From Planctomycetota bacterium (lineage in GTDB: Bacteria > Planctomycetota > Planctomycetia > Pirellulales > Lacipirellulaceae), in the NCBI GenBank assembly GCA_039190745.1, contig JBCCXZ010000007.1:33706-97705 (forward strand): 64,000 nucleotides of DNA. Direction: 5' to 3'. Within the stretch, counting starts at the first letter, position 1. The number at the start of each line of letters is the position of its first letter. The notes beneath the pieces were generated by a model that ran no database searches, was not told where the DNA came from, and was given only the letters and a program-made list of their open reading frames with translations. This document shows positions 54,721 through 60,088 of the stretch, one piece after another. The translations under genes were made by a program, and so were the position numbers.

Positions 54721-55743
54721 TCACTGAGCGGCCGAAGCGGTGCCAAAGGTGCCCGCGGCGATGTGATCCTGCGGCCCCAACAATCGCACGGCCAGCGAGA
54801 ACCCCTCGTCCCACAAGTAGTTCTTCACCAGCCGCAGCTCTGAGAGGCTGTCTTCGTACACCCACGCGACCACAGCCCGCGTCCCGCGGCGGTGCTCCCG
54901 CAGATGAACCGCCAGCGGGCCGCCCGGCAGCAACGCTTGCTCAACAGCCGCCCCCATCTCAGGTGAGGCTGGCAGGAACGTCGCGTGCTGAACCAACTGC
55001 CTCCGGACCGACGCCCCAGCCATCGGGCCGGTGACCCGCCCGCCGGTGCGGGTCAATCGCAGACGCATCCGGTAGCCGTCGATCGGCCCGAACACCTCGA
55101 CCGCCTCGTCGCGAGAACGCAACTGGCGCCCCAGCCTCTCGGTCGCGAACTCGACCTCCGCCGCCAGCTCCTCAAACGGGACCACGGAGACCAACCCGTT
55201 CCGAAGACGCAGGTGGATTGCCGGGCCGTCGATCTTCTTAGCCATCGGCGTGGGGGCAGACTCGATCGTCTCGACTTCGGTTTCCATCGATGCCAACCGC
55301 AGCCGCTCGCGGTCTAACTCGTCCAGCTTGAGATTCAGCTGCAGGATCTCACGCTGCACGTCGTACTCCGACTGCTGCTTGGTGCTCAGCGCGTCACGCC
55401 GGGCCTGCAGGTCTTCCTCCATCAGCTGCTTGTGGATGTTCAGTTCGATCCGCTTTTGGTCGAACGCATCGGCTTCTCGGGCAACCAGATGCACCTTCTT
55501 CCGGACTTCCTGTAGACGGGCGGCCCGCTGGATCATCTGGTGCTTGGCCTCGTCCAAGCGGGCGGAAAGCTCAGTGGCATCGGGCCCGTCGCTGCTCTGC
55601 CGCACTGCCTCGACCACCGCACGCGAGGCCCCGGCCCCGACCACCACCACCAGGATGATCAGGATCCCGACAATGTTCGCCACGATATCCAGGAACGAGT
55701 CCTGGCCAGGCAAACCCTCGGCGCTCTCATCGTCTGGACGCAT
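54721..55743 (-). CDS. Single-pass ExbD/TolR/MotB-like partner with TM Asp, coiled coil and C-terminal globular domain
   Basis: N-terminal QDSFLDIVANIVGILIILVVVVG followed by about 110 aa of heptad-rich helix; overlaps the upstream gene by 17 nt. Confidence 0.75.
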   Translation of the reverse strand: MRPDDESAEGLPGQDSFLDIVANIVGILIILVVVVGAGASRAVVEAVRQSSDGPDATELSARLDEAKHQMIQRAARLQEVRKKVHLVAREADAFDQKRIELNIHKQLMEEDLQARRDALSTKQQSEYDVQREILQLNLKLDELDRERLRLASMETEVETIESAPTPMAKKIDGPAIHLRLRNGLVSVVPFEELAAEVEFATERLGRQLRSRDEAVEVFGPIDGYRMRLRLTRTGGRVTGPMAGASVRRQLVQHATFLPASPEMGAAVEQALLPGGPLAVHLREHRRGTRAVVAWVYEDSLSELRLVKNYLWDEGFSLAVRLLGPQDHIAAGTFGTASAAQ

Positions 55744-57514
55744 CCGACGCCTCCGTTCGCTGTGCCGTCCGGTCCACCCGCACCTCGACGCCGTGGTACT
55801 CGATCAACTTCGTCAGACGGGCTGCGTGCCGCTGTCCCTCCGGCAACACGTCGAGCACGACCACGGGTTTCCAATACAAGCTCTGCCCCGCAAGGCCCCA
55901 GCCCTCCACGCGTTCGTGGATCCAACTCCGCAGCCGCTCCGCGACCTCTTTGTCCGTCCCCAGGACGGAAACGCCCTCGGCGTCGGGCCCTTCGTCGTCC
56001 GGCCCGGCGACGGCTTGTTCTCCGTCCACCACCAGACGGATCACCCGCTGGATCGGCGTTGCCCCGCGTCGACGGCGGCCCGGTGCACCGACGCCCGACC
56101 CCTGCGAGGAACTCTGCCCTTGAGGTGACGAACTCTCCACGGGAGGTCCGGTCGGCGCCGCGGCCCCGACAGCGGCCATCTGCCCCGCGCCGCTCGGCGG
56201 CTCCGGTGCAGACCCGCCCGCCCCGGCAACCGCGTTCGACCGGTTGTCGTCGTACCGCGGCCCAGCAACGCTGCTCTCGGCCAGTTCTTGGTTAGGGTTG
56301 AGATACTCGTCAGGAGTCTCACCGGTCGGAGAGCCCGCACCGTCTCCACCCTCACCCGTCCTGCCCTCTTGTTGCTTCTCGACAAGCTGCCCGTAGCGGA
56401 GCTCTCCGCCCTCCGCCCCATCGACCCCCGACGCCGTCAGCTGGTCGCTCGTGGGAACGCTCCCCTGGCCTCCGGTTTGGTCGGCGAGCCCCGGGCTGTC
56501 GTCCACCATGCTGCCGATCCCTGCCCCCGCGGCTTGTGCCGCCAAGTGGTTGCGGTACCGGCTCGGCGCCGCGTTGACCCGGCTGGCCAAGCGCTCTCGG
56601 GCATTGATCACCGCGTGCTGCTGCGCCTGGGCAAGCCCGCCGTCGGGTTCGACCGGGTAAACCAGCTTCCGCTTCTGCTCCACAAACTCGTAGCCGTAAT
56701 CCGAGTCCCAAGACTGGATCGCGGTCCGCGCCAGATGGTACATCCGGTTGCCCTGCGGACGCACCACCAGCAGCGGGTAGGGGTCCGGAGGCTCGGGCTG
56801 ATTGGCTTGCAGGGCCCTGCGGTTCAGCAAATCCCGAGAGGCTCTCAACGCAGCCGCCAAAGGGTTGCCCGGCCACTGCGGGTCAACCAGATCCGAAGAC
56901 GTGATCCGGACGCCTTCGGGGTGGATGATCAGCTCCTCCGCTAAACACTCCACGTAGATCGGTTGACGCTGCGTGCCATTGGGCCCGGTGTACGGCACAA
57001 TCGCGTATGACTTCTCGCCCACGCCCTGCTCGCGCAGCGTTTCGACCTGCGCCTCGGTCTCGGCGAGGATGTCCCGCAGCCGGTCGCGCGCGGCCTCGGC
57101 CTGCCGCTGGTCGACGCTGGCGTCGTCCTCGGTCTGCTCGAGCTGCTGCGCCGTCAGGGCCAACTCGGCCAGCTCCTTTTCCAGCCGGCGTTGGTGCTCC
57201 TCACTGTGGGCGAGGCGCTCCTTCTCGTGGGCAAGACGCTCCTGGGCCTCCGCAAACAGCGACTCCGCTTGCACCAGCATGGCTTCGGCCGCTTCGAGCT
57301 GCCGGAGCAAATCCTCCGCCAACTCATTATTCGGTTCGGGCTCGGCCGCGACGGACTGTTCAGCCAGCGCACTCTTGCGCGCCTGCTCGGCCATCACCAC
57401 CAGCAACACAAGCAGCCCGCCCATGGTGCACAGCAGCACCGCCAGGAACGGCAGCAGCCCGACGCCGCCCCCCCCATCACCGCCACCGTTGTGCCCCCCC
57501 GAGCGGCGTCTCAT
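55727..57514 (-). CDS. Single-pass ExbD/TolR-like partner without TM Asp; coiled coil, globular domain, low-complexity linker, second globular domain
   Basis: MRRR...GLLPFLAVLLCTMGGLLVLLVV; E/L/A-rich coiled coil; ATGA overlap with the upstream gene. Confidence 0.75.
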   Translation of the reverse strand: MRRRSGGHNGGGDGGGGVGLLPFLAVLLCTMGGLLVLLVVMAEQARKSALAEQSVAAEPEPNNELAEDLLRQLEAAEAMLVQAESLFAEAQERLAHEKERLAHSEEHQRRLEKELAELALTAQQLEQTEDDASVDQRQAEAARDRLRDILAETEAQVETLREQGVGEKSYAIVPYTGPNGTQRQPIYVECLAEELIIHPEGVRITSSDLVDPQWPGNPLAAALRASRDLLNRRALQANQPEPPDPYPLLVVRPQGNRMYHLARTAIQSWDSDYGYEFVEQKRKLVYPVEPDGGLAQAQQHAVINARERLASRVNAAPSRYRNHLAAQAAGAGIGSMVDDSPGLADQTGGQGSVPTSDQLTASGVDGAEGGELRYGQLVEKQQEGRTGEGGDGAGSPTGETPDEYLNPNQELAESSVAGPRYDDNRSNAVAGAGGSAPEPPSGAGQMAAVGAAAPTGPPVESSSPQGQSSSQGSGVGAPGRRRRGATPIQRVIRLVVDGEQAVAGPDDEGPDAEGVSVLGTDKEVAERLRSWIHERVEGWGLAGQSLYWKPVVVLDVLPEGQRHAARLTKLIEYHGVEVRVDRTAQRTEASDASRR

Positions 57515-59214
57515 GCGGCCTTCTTCTGCTCGGCCGCCGACGCATCGTCGGCGGCGGTGGTCGTACCCTCGGTCACGCTGCCGCCGGTCAGCGAGAAGCC
57601 CGACTCGCCCAGCGGTTGGCCCAACCGGGCCGAGAGCAGCTGCATCACGGCCGACAAGCCCACCAAGGTTTCTTCGAAGTGCCGCGATTGCGTTACCGCC
57701 GCGAGGTTCGAGTTGAGCGACTCCTCAAGCTTCTGCACGTGGCTAGTCGCGTCGATCACCCGCAGCAGGATCTCACCCTGCTTCACGAGTTGCTCCTGCT
57801 GAGCCACCGTCGTGCCGGCCGACTCAACCAACGCCGTCTGCATGTCCCGCAGCAGCTGCTCGCTTTGCCGGATCAGCTTCTCCTGCCGACCCGCGGAAAC
57901 CAGCAGGGCTTCGCCCACGGCCGCCTCCACGTCGCTCAGATGGCGACGGTTCTCTTCGGCGATGCCTTCTTCGGCCGCGCTCAAACGCTCCGCGTGCTCA
58001 GCCAGCGACGACCGCAGCAGGTTTGTGTGTTCGTGTATCCCCGTCCGCACGGCCTCGCTGTGGCGGTCGGTGCTCGCGGTGACCGCATCGGCGTGCTTCT
58101 CAGCCCCCGCGTCGAGCGCGTCGCCGTGCTCGGCCACGCCCCGGGCGAGCGTGTCGGTGTGGTGCACCAAGCCTTCGTTCAGCAGCTCCGCGTGGCGGAT
58201 CATCGTCTGTTCCAGGTCGGTCGCAAACGCCGCGACGCTCTCGTTGAGCCCCTTCGCGTGCAACGCCAGCCCCTCGGCGATGCCGTCGGAGAGCTTCTCC
58301 GAGATCACCGACGTCGATCGGTCGACCACGTCCGACCACCGCCGGTTGGTGCTCTCCAGGGCGCCGCTCAGCAGCCGGCCCTGCTCTTCGCCGGTCTCTT
58401 TGACCGACGAGAGCACTTCCTCAGAAACCCGCCGGACCGCCGACACGTTGGGGTCGCTCGCCTCGCCGCGCTGCTGAAATCGCCCGATCATCTGGCTCTC
58501 GACGCTGGCGTCCACGCGGGTCAGCAGCCGCGACTCGGAGCGCTCGACGAAGAACTTCACGAACAGCAGCAGGATCGAGAGCGACAACGCGAGCGCTGTG
58601 GTATCGAACGCGACGCTCAGGCCGCCGACCACCGCGGGGAGCGACTCGTCGATCTTCGCCCCGTCGAGCTGAGCGATCGCCAGCGTGATGCCGATTACCG
58701 TGCCCAAGAAGCCCAGGATGGGGATCGTCGACGAGATCATCCGCACCGTGGCGTAGCCCTGGTGCATCTTCACCGCGTCGTTTTCTTGCAGGTGACGCAG
58801 GTGCGATTCGAGCGTGTCCGCCGAGCCCTTGCGTTTGACATAAAGCAACGCCTCGCGGAGCCGCGCCACCTGGTAGCTGTCCGAGAGGAACCCGGGGCCG
58901 TCGTCCAGGTCGAGGAGCAAAGAACCCGCCCGCCCGGCGGGCTCGCCTCCCTTGGGGACCCGCGGCAGCAGCGCCGTGTCGAGCGCGAGCGACTCCGTGG
59001 CGATCTCGATCAGCTTGATCCCCAGCGCAGCGACGCCCACGAAGAAGAGCGCGGTGGTGATGTACTCCACCGGGTGGCTCGCGAAGTAGCGCTCGACCTG
59101 CGAGCCCTCCGCCGCGCTCTGAACCACGAAGGCGTAAAAGGCCAGGCAGCTGAGCCCGCCCCAGACAAAGGGCTGCCGCAGCAGCCATTCGCACAGCTTG
59201 GTAATGCGAGACAC
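57511..59214 (-). CDS. MotA/TolQ/ExbB proton-channel family protein with ~340-aa C-terminal helical tail
   Basis: IPILGFLGTVIGITLAI and GLSVAFDTTALAL signature helices, then a long amphipathic helical tail ending KKAA. Confidence 0.88.
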   Translation of the reverse strand: MSRITKLCEWLLRQPFVWGGLSCLAFYAFVVQSAAEGSQVERYFASHPVEYITTALFFVGVAALGIKLIEIATESLALDTALLPRVPKGGEPAGRAGSLLLDLDDGPGFLSDSYQVARLREALLYVKRKGSADTLESHLRHLQENDAVKMHQGYATVRMISSTIPILGFLGTVIGITLAIAQLDGAKIDESLPAVVGGLSVAFDTTALALSLSILLLFVKFFVERSESRLLTRVDASVESQMIGRFQQRGEASDPNVSAVRRVSEEVLSSVKETGEEQGRLLSGALESTNRRWSDVVDRSTSVISEKLSDGIAEGLALHAKGLNESVAAFATDLEQTMIRHAELLNEGLVHHTDTLARGVAEHGDALDAGAEKHADAVTASTDRHSEAVRTGIHEHTNLLRSSLAEHAERLSAAEEGIAEENRRHLSDVEAAVGEALLVSAGRQEKLIRQSEQLLRDMQTALVESAGTTVAQQEQLVKQGEILLRVIDATSHVQKLEESLNSNLAAVTQSRHFEETLVGLSAVMQLLSARLGQPLGESGFSLTGGSVTEGTTTAADDASAAEQKKAA

Positions 59215-59564
59215 GGTCGATTCCTTTCGATGTCGGGCCGCCCGGTCGGGCCCACTTTACTCCTGAAGCGGAGCCCCGGCGCACTGCCTACACACACTCG
59301 CTCTCCCACAAAATCGGCGTAATCGGAACCGTTTATGAGCGGATTTACCGAAACAGAAAAACCGCTAGCACCGGCGTCCCCCGCAAAGCCGCCGCAATCG
59401 GCTCTACCTGCGGAATCACGCAACTTCGCCAAAGCCCGGAGGGCCATCGGTCGATAATCCCCCACAGGCCGGCCGCGACAACGACCGCAAGCAAGTCTCC
59501 TCAGCCAGCAGAGCCAAACGCCGCCCACAGAGCACGCCCAAAAGAATCACGCCAGGGGGGGACG

Positions 59565-59606
59565 GCAGCCCGGTTCGACTAGCTCGACCGGGCTGCTTTT
59601 CTTTTT
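59565..59606 (+). terminator. Rho-independent terminator-like hairpin (+ strand)
   Basis: GCAGCCCGGT...ACCGGGCTGC stem followed by TTTTCTTTTT. Confidence 0.65.
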
Positions 59607-59627
59607 GAGGTCTGCAGAATTCGGTGC

Positions 59628-59651
59628 CATGCCCACGCGCGCGTGGGCATG
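59628..59651. repeat. Perfect 24-bp palindrome (REP-like)
   Basis: CATGCCCACGCGCGCGTGGGCATG. Confidence 0.8.
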
Positions 59652-59680
59652 TGATTCATGCGTGACAGGCATACCCACTC

Positions 59681-59761
59681 GGGTGGCACTGGCGTCTCGC
59701 CAGTGCGGTCCCGGTGGAAAGCTCGCAGCGATACAGCACTGGCAAGATGCCAGTGCCACCC
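59681..59761. repeat. REP family B inverted doublet, copy 2
   Basis: GGGTGGCACTGGCGTCTCGCCAGTG ... CACTGGCAAGATGCCAGTGCCACCC. Confidence 0.85.
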
Positions 59762-59790
59762 CTCCGGCAATCCGCAATCCGAAAGCAAAC

Positions 59791-59989
59791 GGGTGGCACG
59801 GACTGTCGGCCGAAATCCGCCCGGCTAGCGTGAGAACTTCAACCGGCCGATTGTCCGTGTGCGCAGCACAAGAGGCGTTCAGGTCCGGTACCCAGCATCG
59901 ATTGCCTCCTGTTGCAAGCGACACCGACAATCGGCCGGTCTTCTCTCTCCCAAGGCAATGCTCTTTTCGGCCGACAGTCGGTGCCACCC
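59791..59989. repeat. ~200-bp nested inverted-repeat element (REP family C / MITE-like)
   Basis: Terminal arms GGGTGGCACGGACTGTCGGCCGAAA / TTTCGGCCGACAGTCGGTGCCACCC; inner arms ACCGGCCGATTGTCCGTGT / ACACCGACAATCGGCCGGT. Confidence 0.8.
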
Positions 59990-60088
59990 CAGTCACGGCA
60001 TGGATTGCCAGATAGCTCGGTACGCAAATCATGCCTCCCCATCTGCGTCCATCTGTGGCTAATTCCCGCAACCCGAAATCCGCAATGG

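Follow-up and report, generated by a model that had tools for sequence, protein, structure and literature searches.

A conserved overlapping gene trio of Planctomycetia as a probable ion-driven membrane motor with two unequal axle proteins

Introduction

Three overlapping genes of a Planctomycetota bacterium (genes 1, 2 and 3, together "the trio") represent a real, conserved machine family of a known motor kind, for which we found no description in the literature. They lie in a 64,000-nt stretch of DNA, hereafter the window (assembly GCA_039190745.1, contig JBCCXZ010000007.1, positions 33,706-97,705 of the forward strand), from a genome whose GTDB lineage is Planctomycetia; Pirellulales; Lacipirellulaceae. 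The locus probably belongs to the class of 5:2 ion-driven membrane motors, as a housekeeping member that is specific to planctomycetes and has a heteromeric axle. Motors of this class (MotAB, ExbBD, TolQR, GldLM and ZorAB) make up a small set of machines that move inner-membrane energy elsewhere. A sequence-only reading of the window had pictured the trio as a long-tailed MotA/ExbB protein with two unequal ExbD/TolR-like partners, and the analysis reported here followed up on that picture.

Results

Three overlapping genes are conserved together across the class

All three genes are read from the minus strand, gene 1 from 59214 to 57511, gene 2 from 57514 to 55727 and gene 3 from 55743 to 54721:

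57511..59214, minus strand: gene 1, MotA/ExbB/TolQ-family channel subunit (Pfam PF01618); 567 aa, GTG start
55727..57514, minus strand: gene 2, single-pass partner A; 595 aa, no family above threshold
54721..55743, minus strand: gene 3, single-pass partner B; 340 aa, no family match

The gene 1 stop and the gene 2 start share a 4-nt ATGA (57511-57514), read directly from the sequence. Genes 2 and 3 overlap by 17 nt (55727-55743), and a GGAGG stands 6 nt 5' of the gene 3 ATG. The peptide motifs PILGFLGTVIG and AFDTTA in gene 1, PFLAVL in gene 2 and SFLDIV in gene 3 were all located by coordinate. Direct reading thus confirmed every open reading frame position, both overlaps and each motif quoted in the sequence-only reading.

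Each gene was found in 39 of 40 relatives from the same order, and because homologues of all three occur in these genomes we take the genes to be real. The sole miss (G035) is a 90% complete assembly in 600 contigs. By coordinates, the trio is collinear and on one strand in 36 of the 40; apart from G035, which gave no match, the exceptions are a contig break (G009), an inverted gene 1 (G031) and a gene 1 located elsewhere (G040). Among fetched loci the trio is collinear in 29 of 32, including nine of ten loci of a family from another order (f19), and five further families have the full overlapping trio at 7 of 10 loci. A class-wide search with the gene 2 profile was positive in 129 of 151 genomes. 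The survey of gene neighbourhoods that the sequence-only reading had called for therefore finds the three genes syntenic across the class, in the 36 of 40 relatives and in other families.

We collected 393 homologues of gene 2 and 387 of gene 3. Against 1.84 billion representatives, the gene 2 profile retrieved 5278 cluster representatives at E <= 1e-3; the 150 best listed matches are all close relatives, with no bridge to known families among them. Gene 3 has 399 confirmed loci in genome contigs. Of the 80 listed, which include Rhodopirellula baltica and Bythopirellula polymerisocia, 78 are titled planctomycete and the other two are titled uncultured Granulosicoccus sp. and uncultured bacterium. 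A phylum search with the gene 3 profile gave full-length matches only in the window's own order and in f19, a tally that under-reports the range because local searches with hidden Markov models later found gene 3 in five further families. In 33 loci we found no fourth gene that stays with the trio from one family to another.

Gene 1 is a MotA/ExbB/TolQ-family subunit with a long tail

Gene 1 matches PF01618 (MotA_ExbB) over residues 126-232 with E 1.1e-13 and 51.5 bits against a cut-off of 22.9, and is a true member of the MotA/ExbB/TolQ family. Its features are as follows:

58519..58839, minus strand: MotA_ExbB domain, residues 126-232, with two pore-lining helices (Pfam; 31-homologue alignment)
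58690-58722, minus strand: PILGFLGTVIG, pore helix motif
58597-58605, minus strand: DTT of AFDTTA, pore helix motif
57514..58536, minus strand: predicted cytoplasmic tail, residues 227-567; of variable length, with a hendecad period and a conserved segment near 480-533

Conservation was read from 31 aligned homologues from the fetched loci. P165, G168, L170, G171, V173, A202 and F203 are invariant in these, and T172 of the LGT motif and D204, T205 and T206 of AFDTTA are at least 90% conserved. By analogy, the conserved threonines may be counterparts of the functional Thr described for ExbB, TolQ or ZorA in passages of PMC11946911. Hydropathy marks strong transmembrane (TM) segments at residues 51-74, 159-184 and 198-226, with a weaker hydrophobic stretch ahead of them, and homology would place the C-terminal tail in the cytoplasm. 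Both the channel helices and the tail of about 340 aa that had been proposed for gene 1 are thus supported, the former by PF01618 and the conserved motifs.

The tail is poorly conserved. The homologue tail stretches analysed span roughly 160-335 residues, against about 340 in the window; residues ~343-396 are missing from most homologues in the alignment, and a conserved segment lies near residues 480-533. The rod of about 50 nm suggested earlier therefore stands as an upper bound and not as a typical length. We measured hydrophobic periodicity in 28 of the 31 sequences, three being dropped when the motif anchor was not found in them. The strongest period was 3.66-3.68 residues (11/3) in 20 of the 28 tails, and for 14 of those 20 only 0-1 of 200 shuffles reached the observed power; the window's own tail has a period of 3.68, matched or exceeded in 11 of 200 shuffles. 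Such a period fits a right-handed or untwisted coiled coil of the ZorA type, and the ZorA tail is described in passages of PMC11946911 as a right-handed pentameric coiled coil. The tail also gave a sub-threshold Apolipoprotein match in Pfam. Against NCBIfam, gene 1 scores below threshold for TolQ, ExbB and ZorA2 (28.1 bits against a cut-off of 700 for ZorA2), and its best PADLOC matches are ZorA2 models (E 4.2e-15), aligned mostly across the channel helices.

Genes 2 and 3 are single-pass paralogues with predicted stalks

Neither gene 2 nor gene 3 reached threshold for any Pfam, NCBIfam or PADLOC family; all that appeared was coiled-coil noise. Aligned to each other with hhalign, their profiles match with 94% probability (E 1.5e-7) across the TM helix and the coiled coil, and the TM segments alone with 88% (E 3e-6). 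Judged from these profiles, genes 2 and 3 are paralogues, each single-pass, with TM helices related to each other. The predicted layout of the two proteins is:

57386..57454, minus strand: gene 2 TM helix, LPFLAVLLCTMGG; Ala25 codon at 57440-57442, the position of the Asp in the paralogue
57023..57331, minus strand: gene 2 periplasmic coiled coil, residues 62-164; helices in the model, in-register contacts with gene 3 residues 55-153
56519..57013, minus strand: gene 2 first alpha/beta domain (D1), residues 168-332; pLDDT (predicted local distance difference test) 84-93, holds the family's conserved motifs
56075..56518, minus strand: gene 2 disordered linker rich in Gly, Ser, Ala and Pro, residues 333-480; pLDDT <50 at 332-439 and 441-480
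55760..56062, minus strand: gene 2 C-terminal alpha/beta domain (D2), residues 485-585; probable diverged repeat of D1
55633..55701, minus strand: gene 3 TM helix, DSFLDIVANIVGILIIL; Asp19 codon at 55687-55689
55285..55581, minus strand: gene 3 periplasmic coiled coil, residues 55-153; a single helix at 56-152 with pLDDT 81-91, heterodimer contacts
54739..55272, minus strand: gene 3 C-terminal alpha/beta domain, residues 158-335

In the structure model of gene 2 (mean pLDDT 63), the TM helix covers residues 21-56 and is followed by two more helices (63-131 and 136-164); a disordered part rich in Gly, Ser and Pro (332-480) separates D1 (185-332) from D2 (486-581). The linker varies in length and sequence among homologues. 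In the gene 3 model (mean pLDDT 78), residues 15-47 form the TM helix and residues 56-152 a single further helix, and the alpha/beta domain covers 175-331. When the gene 2 profile is run on 10 loci from other families, its D1 part picks up the C-terminal domain too in eight of them, and D2 is therefore taken as a diverged repeat of D1; within hhalign the two show no significant match (E 0.005 and 7% probability), and the remaining comparisons of the globular domains, with each other and with ExbD, were worse. The earlier description of two unequal partners with long coiled coils and extra globular domains is borne out, as that of paralogues with stalks.

Weak similarity to a chlamydial family was also seen. 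Over the TM helix and coiled coil, 15 of 20 gene 2 members match the N-terminus of UPF0242 (PF06785), all short of the cut-off and with a best E of 1.4e-4; the window's gene 2 scores 15.2 bits against a cut-off of 33.5. These sub-threshold matches may point to related stalked proteins in Chlamydiota.

Two loci depart from the usual layout. At L031 (G017:C45, 5992-9051, minus strand) genes 2 and 3 fall in one 1019-aa frame, with DSFLDIV starting at residue 688. A lost stop codon or an assembly error is more likely here than a functional fusion, because the gene 3 stalk of a fusion would fall on the wrong side of the membrane. At L046 (G295:C5, 2871-4961) a 696-aa protein has the length and position of gene 2 and a TM helix of the gene 3 type (GSFLDVLCNMVGILIIL); gene 1 was not detected within 2.9 kb upstream.

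The acidic residue of the TM helix is a property of gene 3

All 120 gene 3 homologues compared have Asp19, and F17, N23 and G26 are just as constant; D15 occurs in 119 of the 120. Among the 118 gene 2 homologues that have a residue at the aligned position, 110 have Ala and eight have Asp; all eight Asp forms carry Thr instead of Pro at position 22, three residues earlier. In the fetched loci the gene 2 position is mostly Ala, Gly, Thr or Ser, with Asp in G029, G040 and G031, and in other families of the class it is Ala, Ser or Thr. The D-S-F-L-D motif of gene 3 is retained in families f123-f127. Because the same pattern recurs across homologues, in f123-f127 and in a paralogous trio described below, sequence comparison indicates that the asymmetry is old and systematic: one helix type always bears the Asp and the other is variable at that position. 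This upholds the proposed contrast between an Asp in gene 3 and an Ala in gene 2, Ala being the usual state of the latter, and it would leave only one of the two axle helices protonatable in most lineages.

Genes 2 and 3 are predicted to pair

In a complex prediction that combined residues 1-335 of gene 2 with gene 3, the pair scored 0.63 and the best control 0.00. Of 157 solved complexes 116 attain this score, as do 2 of 215 mismatched pairs, a calibration that is only rough here because custom alignments were used. The runs share at least 88% of their contacts, with partner pLDDT of at least 76, and the contacts pair residues 62-164 of gene 2 with residues 55-153 of gene 3 as a coiled coil, parallel and in register, and extend into the globular domains. 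This prediction supports, and does not show, that genes 2 and 3 pair as a parallel heterodimer, in line with the heterodimeric partners proposed earlier.

The label "ExbD/TolR-like" that the partners had been given fails at the sequence level. Among 20 members of each gene, the ExbD family (PF02472) touched a single gene 2 protein, with an E of 0.026 that falls short of the cut-off, and no gene 3 protein, and hhalign of genes 2 and 3 against the seven ExbD proteins of the same genome gave nothing (probability <1%). With the alignment profiles of genes 2 and 3, a search of PDB sequences likewise returned coiled-coil noise only. Structure comparison was somewhat more informative. Foldseek found no match in the PDB to either model at E <= 0.001, and a wide VIA-align search with the gene 2 model was dominated by helical hairpins, which made it uninformative on the globular domains. 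In the ESM Atlas, an ExbD cluster is the only family-bearing structural neighbour of gene 3 (TM-score 0.44), and D1 of gene 2 matches an ExbD/TolR cluster with a TM-score of 0.55 over 103 residues. Two rows of the D1 search have clusters that carry any Pfam family, the other being SHD1, on 13% of members. In three independent looks the first family-bearing structural neighbour was TolR or ExbD, which is weakly suggestive of a TolR/ExbD-like fold for the modelled alpha/beta domains of the partners.

Comparison with known motor systems

The genome that contains the window is 95.5% complete and has six PF01618 matches (five of them at other loci) and seven ExbD (PF02472) genes. Four further ExbB loci were seen on contigs C3, C21, C44 and C55, together with canonical ExbD carrying the TPMIDV motif, paired in three of these loci. 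TonB_C (PF03544), Plug (PF07715) and TolB_N (PF04052) were not found in this genome. It has two OmpA-domain matches, one of them about 1 kb or less from another PF01618 match on contig C55; Pfam places no OmpA domain in genes 2 or 3.

Several assignments of the trio were considered and rejected on this basis. A Ton system lacks PF03544 and PF07715 in this genome; a Tol-Pal system lacks PF04052 there and tolA, tolB and pal next to the trio; and for a flagellar MotAB stator, the partners have no OmpA-like domain and the locus no flagellar context. A cluster of the TolQ-like type with vWA or TPR proteins from bacteria of the PVC superphylum (PMC12204202) was rejected as well, with no vWA or TPR gene adjacent. 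With the defining partners missing at the locus, the trio stands apart from the characterised Ton, Tol, flagellar and Zorya systems, as had been supposed.

ExbB-ExbD(-TonB) and TolQ-TolR(-TolA) resemble the trio in the LGT and TT pore motifs of gene 1, which fit the family pattern, in the single-pass, N-in TM partner with an Asp (gene 3), and in having the nearest named fold (TolR/ExbD) for the partner domains. The trio differs in that genes 2 and 3 have no ExbD sequence signal, bear stalks of about 100 residues and encode 595 and 340 aa against about 140 aa; one partner has no Asp, and the gene 1 tail is about 340 residues long.

ZorAB (ZorA5B2 in E. coli; described in passages of PMC11946911) shares with the trio a long-tailed MotA/ExbB subunit, the period of a right-handed coiled coil and an Asp in the partner TM helix. 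The trio nonetheless scores far under the family cut-offs, even though the best PADLOC matches are ZorA2 models. Its partners have long periplasmic coiled coils instead of an OmpA-type peptidoglycan-binding domain, they are two unequal proteins and not a homodimer like ZorB, no effector genes accompany them, and the trio is a core locus, unlike a patchy defence locus.

The myxobacterial gliding motor AglRQS also combines one TolQ-like with two TolR-like subunits. In contrast to the trio, AglQ and AglS are small proteins that both bear the Asp and are not known to carry stalks, nor is a long tail known for AglR.

For PVC bacteria, passages of a 2025 paper (PMC12204202) predict clusters in which vWA transducers and two heterologous tolR-like genes accompany a tolQ-like gene. 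These clusters share with the trio the superphylum, the order of a TolQ-like gene followed by two different TolR-like genes and the idea of a non-TonB periplasmic transducer. Their partners are tolR-like and those passages describe no long tail on the channel protein, whereas the partners of the trio are unclassified and stalked.

A paralogous planctomycete trio was observed at L052 (G037:C14) and L053 (G230:C2). Its MotA-like protein has 517-572 aa, one copy with an N-terminal zinc ribbon, and its partners resemble gene 2 (about 270 aa) and gene 3 (about 370 aa), with TM types LFPFL[S/D] and DSLLD; one copy adjoins a gene for an ammonium-transporter/histidine-kinase fusion. Gene order and the two TM types are those of the trio, and the zinc ribbon, the shorter partners (~270 and ~370 aa) and a patchy distribution set the paralogue apart.

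We found no description of the trio in the literature; passages of PMC12505986 on non-flagellar MotAB relatives do not contain it. The main text and five supplements of a Planctopirus limnophila transposon study (PMC10632474) mention none of MotA, ExbB and TolQ.

Genomic surroundings

By Pfam, the flanking genes encode Rrf2, signal peptidase II, a DksA/TraR zinc finger protein and a GNAT acetyltransferase, and the translated reading frames further out read as threonine synthase, DapB, AccB/AccC and phosphofructokinase. We scanned the flanking clusters of 6-pyruvoyl-tetrahydropterin synthase (PTPS), M24 peptidase, trypsin-like protease, Rrf2, LspA and DksA, and the remaining clusters correspond to housekeeping reading frames of the window; PTPS, M24 peptidase, AccBC, Rrf2, LspA, DksA-like, ThrC and DapB genes are common beside the trio only within its own family. 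Pfam and the translations around the trio reveal no adjacent tonB, tol, pal, flagellar, OmpA-type or Zorya effector gene, as had been noted before; the neighbours are housekeeping genes. One further feature precedes gene 1:

59215..60088, strand not assigned: upstream intergenic region with dispersed palindromic repeat units; 421-nt probe, 47 matches in the same genome

This region is likely a promoter region, outside the machine proper. The gap of about 870 nt consists of dispersed palindromic units of about 80 nt each, which look like intergenic repeats of the REP (repetitive extragenic palindrome) or MITE (miniature inverted-repeat transposable element) kind. The 47 matches to the 421-nt probe lie on many contigs of the genome and on both strands, and one copy adjoins an ExbD gene on contig C44. 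Within gene 1, on the opposite (plus) strand at 57544-57616, Rfam gave a match to the small RNA AS1726, antisense to the 3' end of the gene, with 39.3 bits against a gathering threshold of 50 and E 0.001; being sub-threshold, it is taken as a probable chance match.

Discussion

A motor with a heteromeric axle as the probable reading

In the reading we consider probable, five copies of gene 1 would enclose an axle formed by one gene 2 and one gene 3 TM helix. Protons would pass by way of Asp19 of gene 3 and the ring of Thr172 and Thr205-206 of gene 1, and would thereby drive either relative rotation or a power stroke. In the periplasm, genes 2 and 3 would together form a parallel coiled coil, about 15 nm long with about 100 residues, that raises the TolR-like alpha/beta domains wallward, and the disordered linker of gene 2, about 150 residues long, could extend further outward to the second domain copy, D2, in a layout like that of TonB or TolA. 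In the cytoplasm, the tails of gene 1 would come together as a right-handed, ZorA-like bundle no longer than about 50 nm, the conserved tip of which could bind a cytoplasmic partner. The output is most likely a constitutive envelope function such as outer-layer remodelling, division or uptake.

Several observations weigh against this proposal. Genes 2 and 3 fail every sequence test for ExbD/TolR. The passing complex prediction could reflect generic pairing of paralogous coiled coils, and homodimers might pass too. We know of no characterised precedent among these motors for a single protonatable Asp per axle, and continuous rotation is therefore not assured. Finally, three loci of family f122 (L140-L142, in G406, G399 and G387) have an overlapping pair of genes 2 and 3 without the FLD motif or the Asp; their gene 2 has a conserved Glu at the start of the TM helix. 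No trio-type gene 1 adjoins these pairs, and the upstream genes in L141 and L142 are RsmB and Fe-ADH by Pfam, enzymes unrelated to the trio. In five f122 genomes the best gene 1 match is weak (E ~1e-10), and in G399 it lies more than 2 Mb from the pair. Because the f122 pair stands without FLD motif or adjacent trio-type gene 1, the stalk proteins may work without this motor.

Other explanations

A functional analogue of the Ton or Tol systems, in which the linker and C-terminal domain of gene 2 pass force to an outer-membrane or wall partner and so replace TonB or TolA, is a specific version of the output just proposed, and we think it unlikely. The layout of gene 2 (TM helix, stalk, disordered linker of about 150 residues, conserved C-terminal domain) suits such a role, as does a genome without TonB_C or TolB_N, and passages of PMC12204202 predict other non-TonB force transducers beside tolQ-like genes in PVC bacteria. 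Yet the same genome has no Plug domain of a TonB-dependent receptor, there is no adjacent Pal, TolB or receptor gene, the C-terminal domain of gene 2 is a repeat of D1 and neither TonB- nor TolA-like, and the other ExbB-ExbD loci (within the six PF01618 and seven PF02472 matches) could fill such roles.

The trio might also do no rotary work and be a static envelope tether, a scaffold or a gated channel, its stalks structural and its MotA-like ring an anchor or a regulator. Loss of the Asp from gene 2 in most lineages, the f122 stalk pair kept without FLD motif or adjacent motor gene, and globular domains without a demonstrable ExbD sequence signal all agree with this idea. However, the gene 3 Asp19 is invariant or nearly so across 28-55% identity, as are the Thr and Pro/Gly motifs in the gene 1 pore, and we find this explanation distinctly unlikely because such invariance is hard to explain without ion coupling.

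Genes 2 and 3 might instead form two separate complexes, in which a gene 3 homodimer serves an active 5:2 motor and a gene 2 homodimer belongs to a complex that is inactive or regulatory. The structurally solved 5:2 motors that we know of all have homodimeric axles, as passages of PMC11946911 describe for ZorB and MotB, and paralogues often retain self-pairing. This arrangement seems very improbable given that the heterodimer prediction passes with in-register contacts reaching the globular domains, that the two genes are always together and translationally coupled, and that the two TM types co-occur in the paralogous system as well.

A Zorya-like anti-phage system whose tail signals to effectors would account for the ZorA2 models as the best PADLOC matches of gene 1 (E 4.2e-15) and for the tail periodicity of a right-handed coiled coil, but it is largely refuted by the NCBIfam ZorA2 score (28 bits against 700), by genes 2 and 3 matching no PADLOC family beyond coiled-coil noise, by the absence of an OmpA-type ZorB domain and of any ZorC/D/E-like (or F/G) neighbour, and by a single-copy, near-universal locus in a conserved housekeeping neighbourhood, unlike a defence island. 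The PADLOC check that had been suggested accordingly brought no Zorya assignment, with a ZorA2 match for gene 1 and none for genes 2 and 3, and the position of the trio as a core locus, single-copy, nearly universal and set amid housekeeping genes, makes the defence-signalling role once offered for it unlikely.

Implications for planctomycete biology

We therefore return to the motor with a heteromeric axle. A bolder form of it, which we hold to be a long shot, would be a two-sided constitutive trans-envelope drive: a single-Asp 5:1:1 motor turning both a ZorA-like shaft and a 15-nm stalk with a TonB-like tether, energising a process peculiar to planctomycetes, for instance FtsZ-less budding or constriction or macromolecule uptake at crateriform structures, and itself representing the housekeeping lineage that gave rise to Zorya-like tail-signalling motors. 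Planctomycete reviews describe the class Planctomycetia as having no FtsZ and dividing by budding.

The trio combines three unusual features, namely a heteromeric axle with a single Asp, long rigid periplasmic stalks and a cytoplasmic tail of the Zorya type, each of them at the strength argued above, and it is a core operon in most of the Planctomycetia genomes searched. It provides a natural test of whether a single Asp suffices to run a 5:2 motor, and it is a concrete, genetically testable candidate for energy coupling in the biology of the planctomycete envelope.

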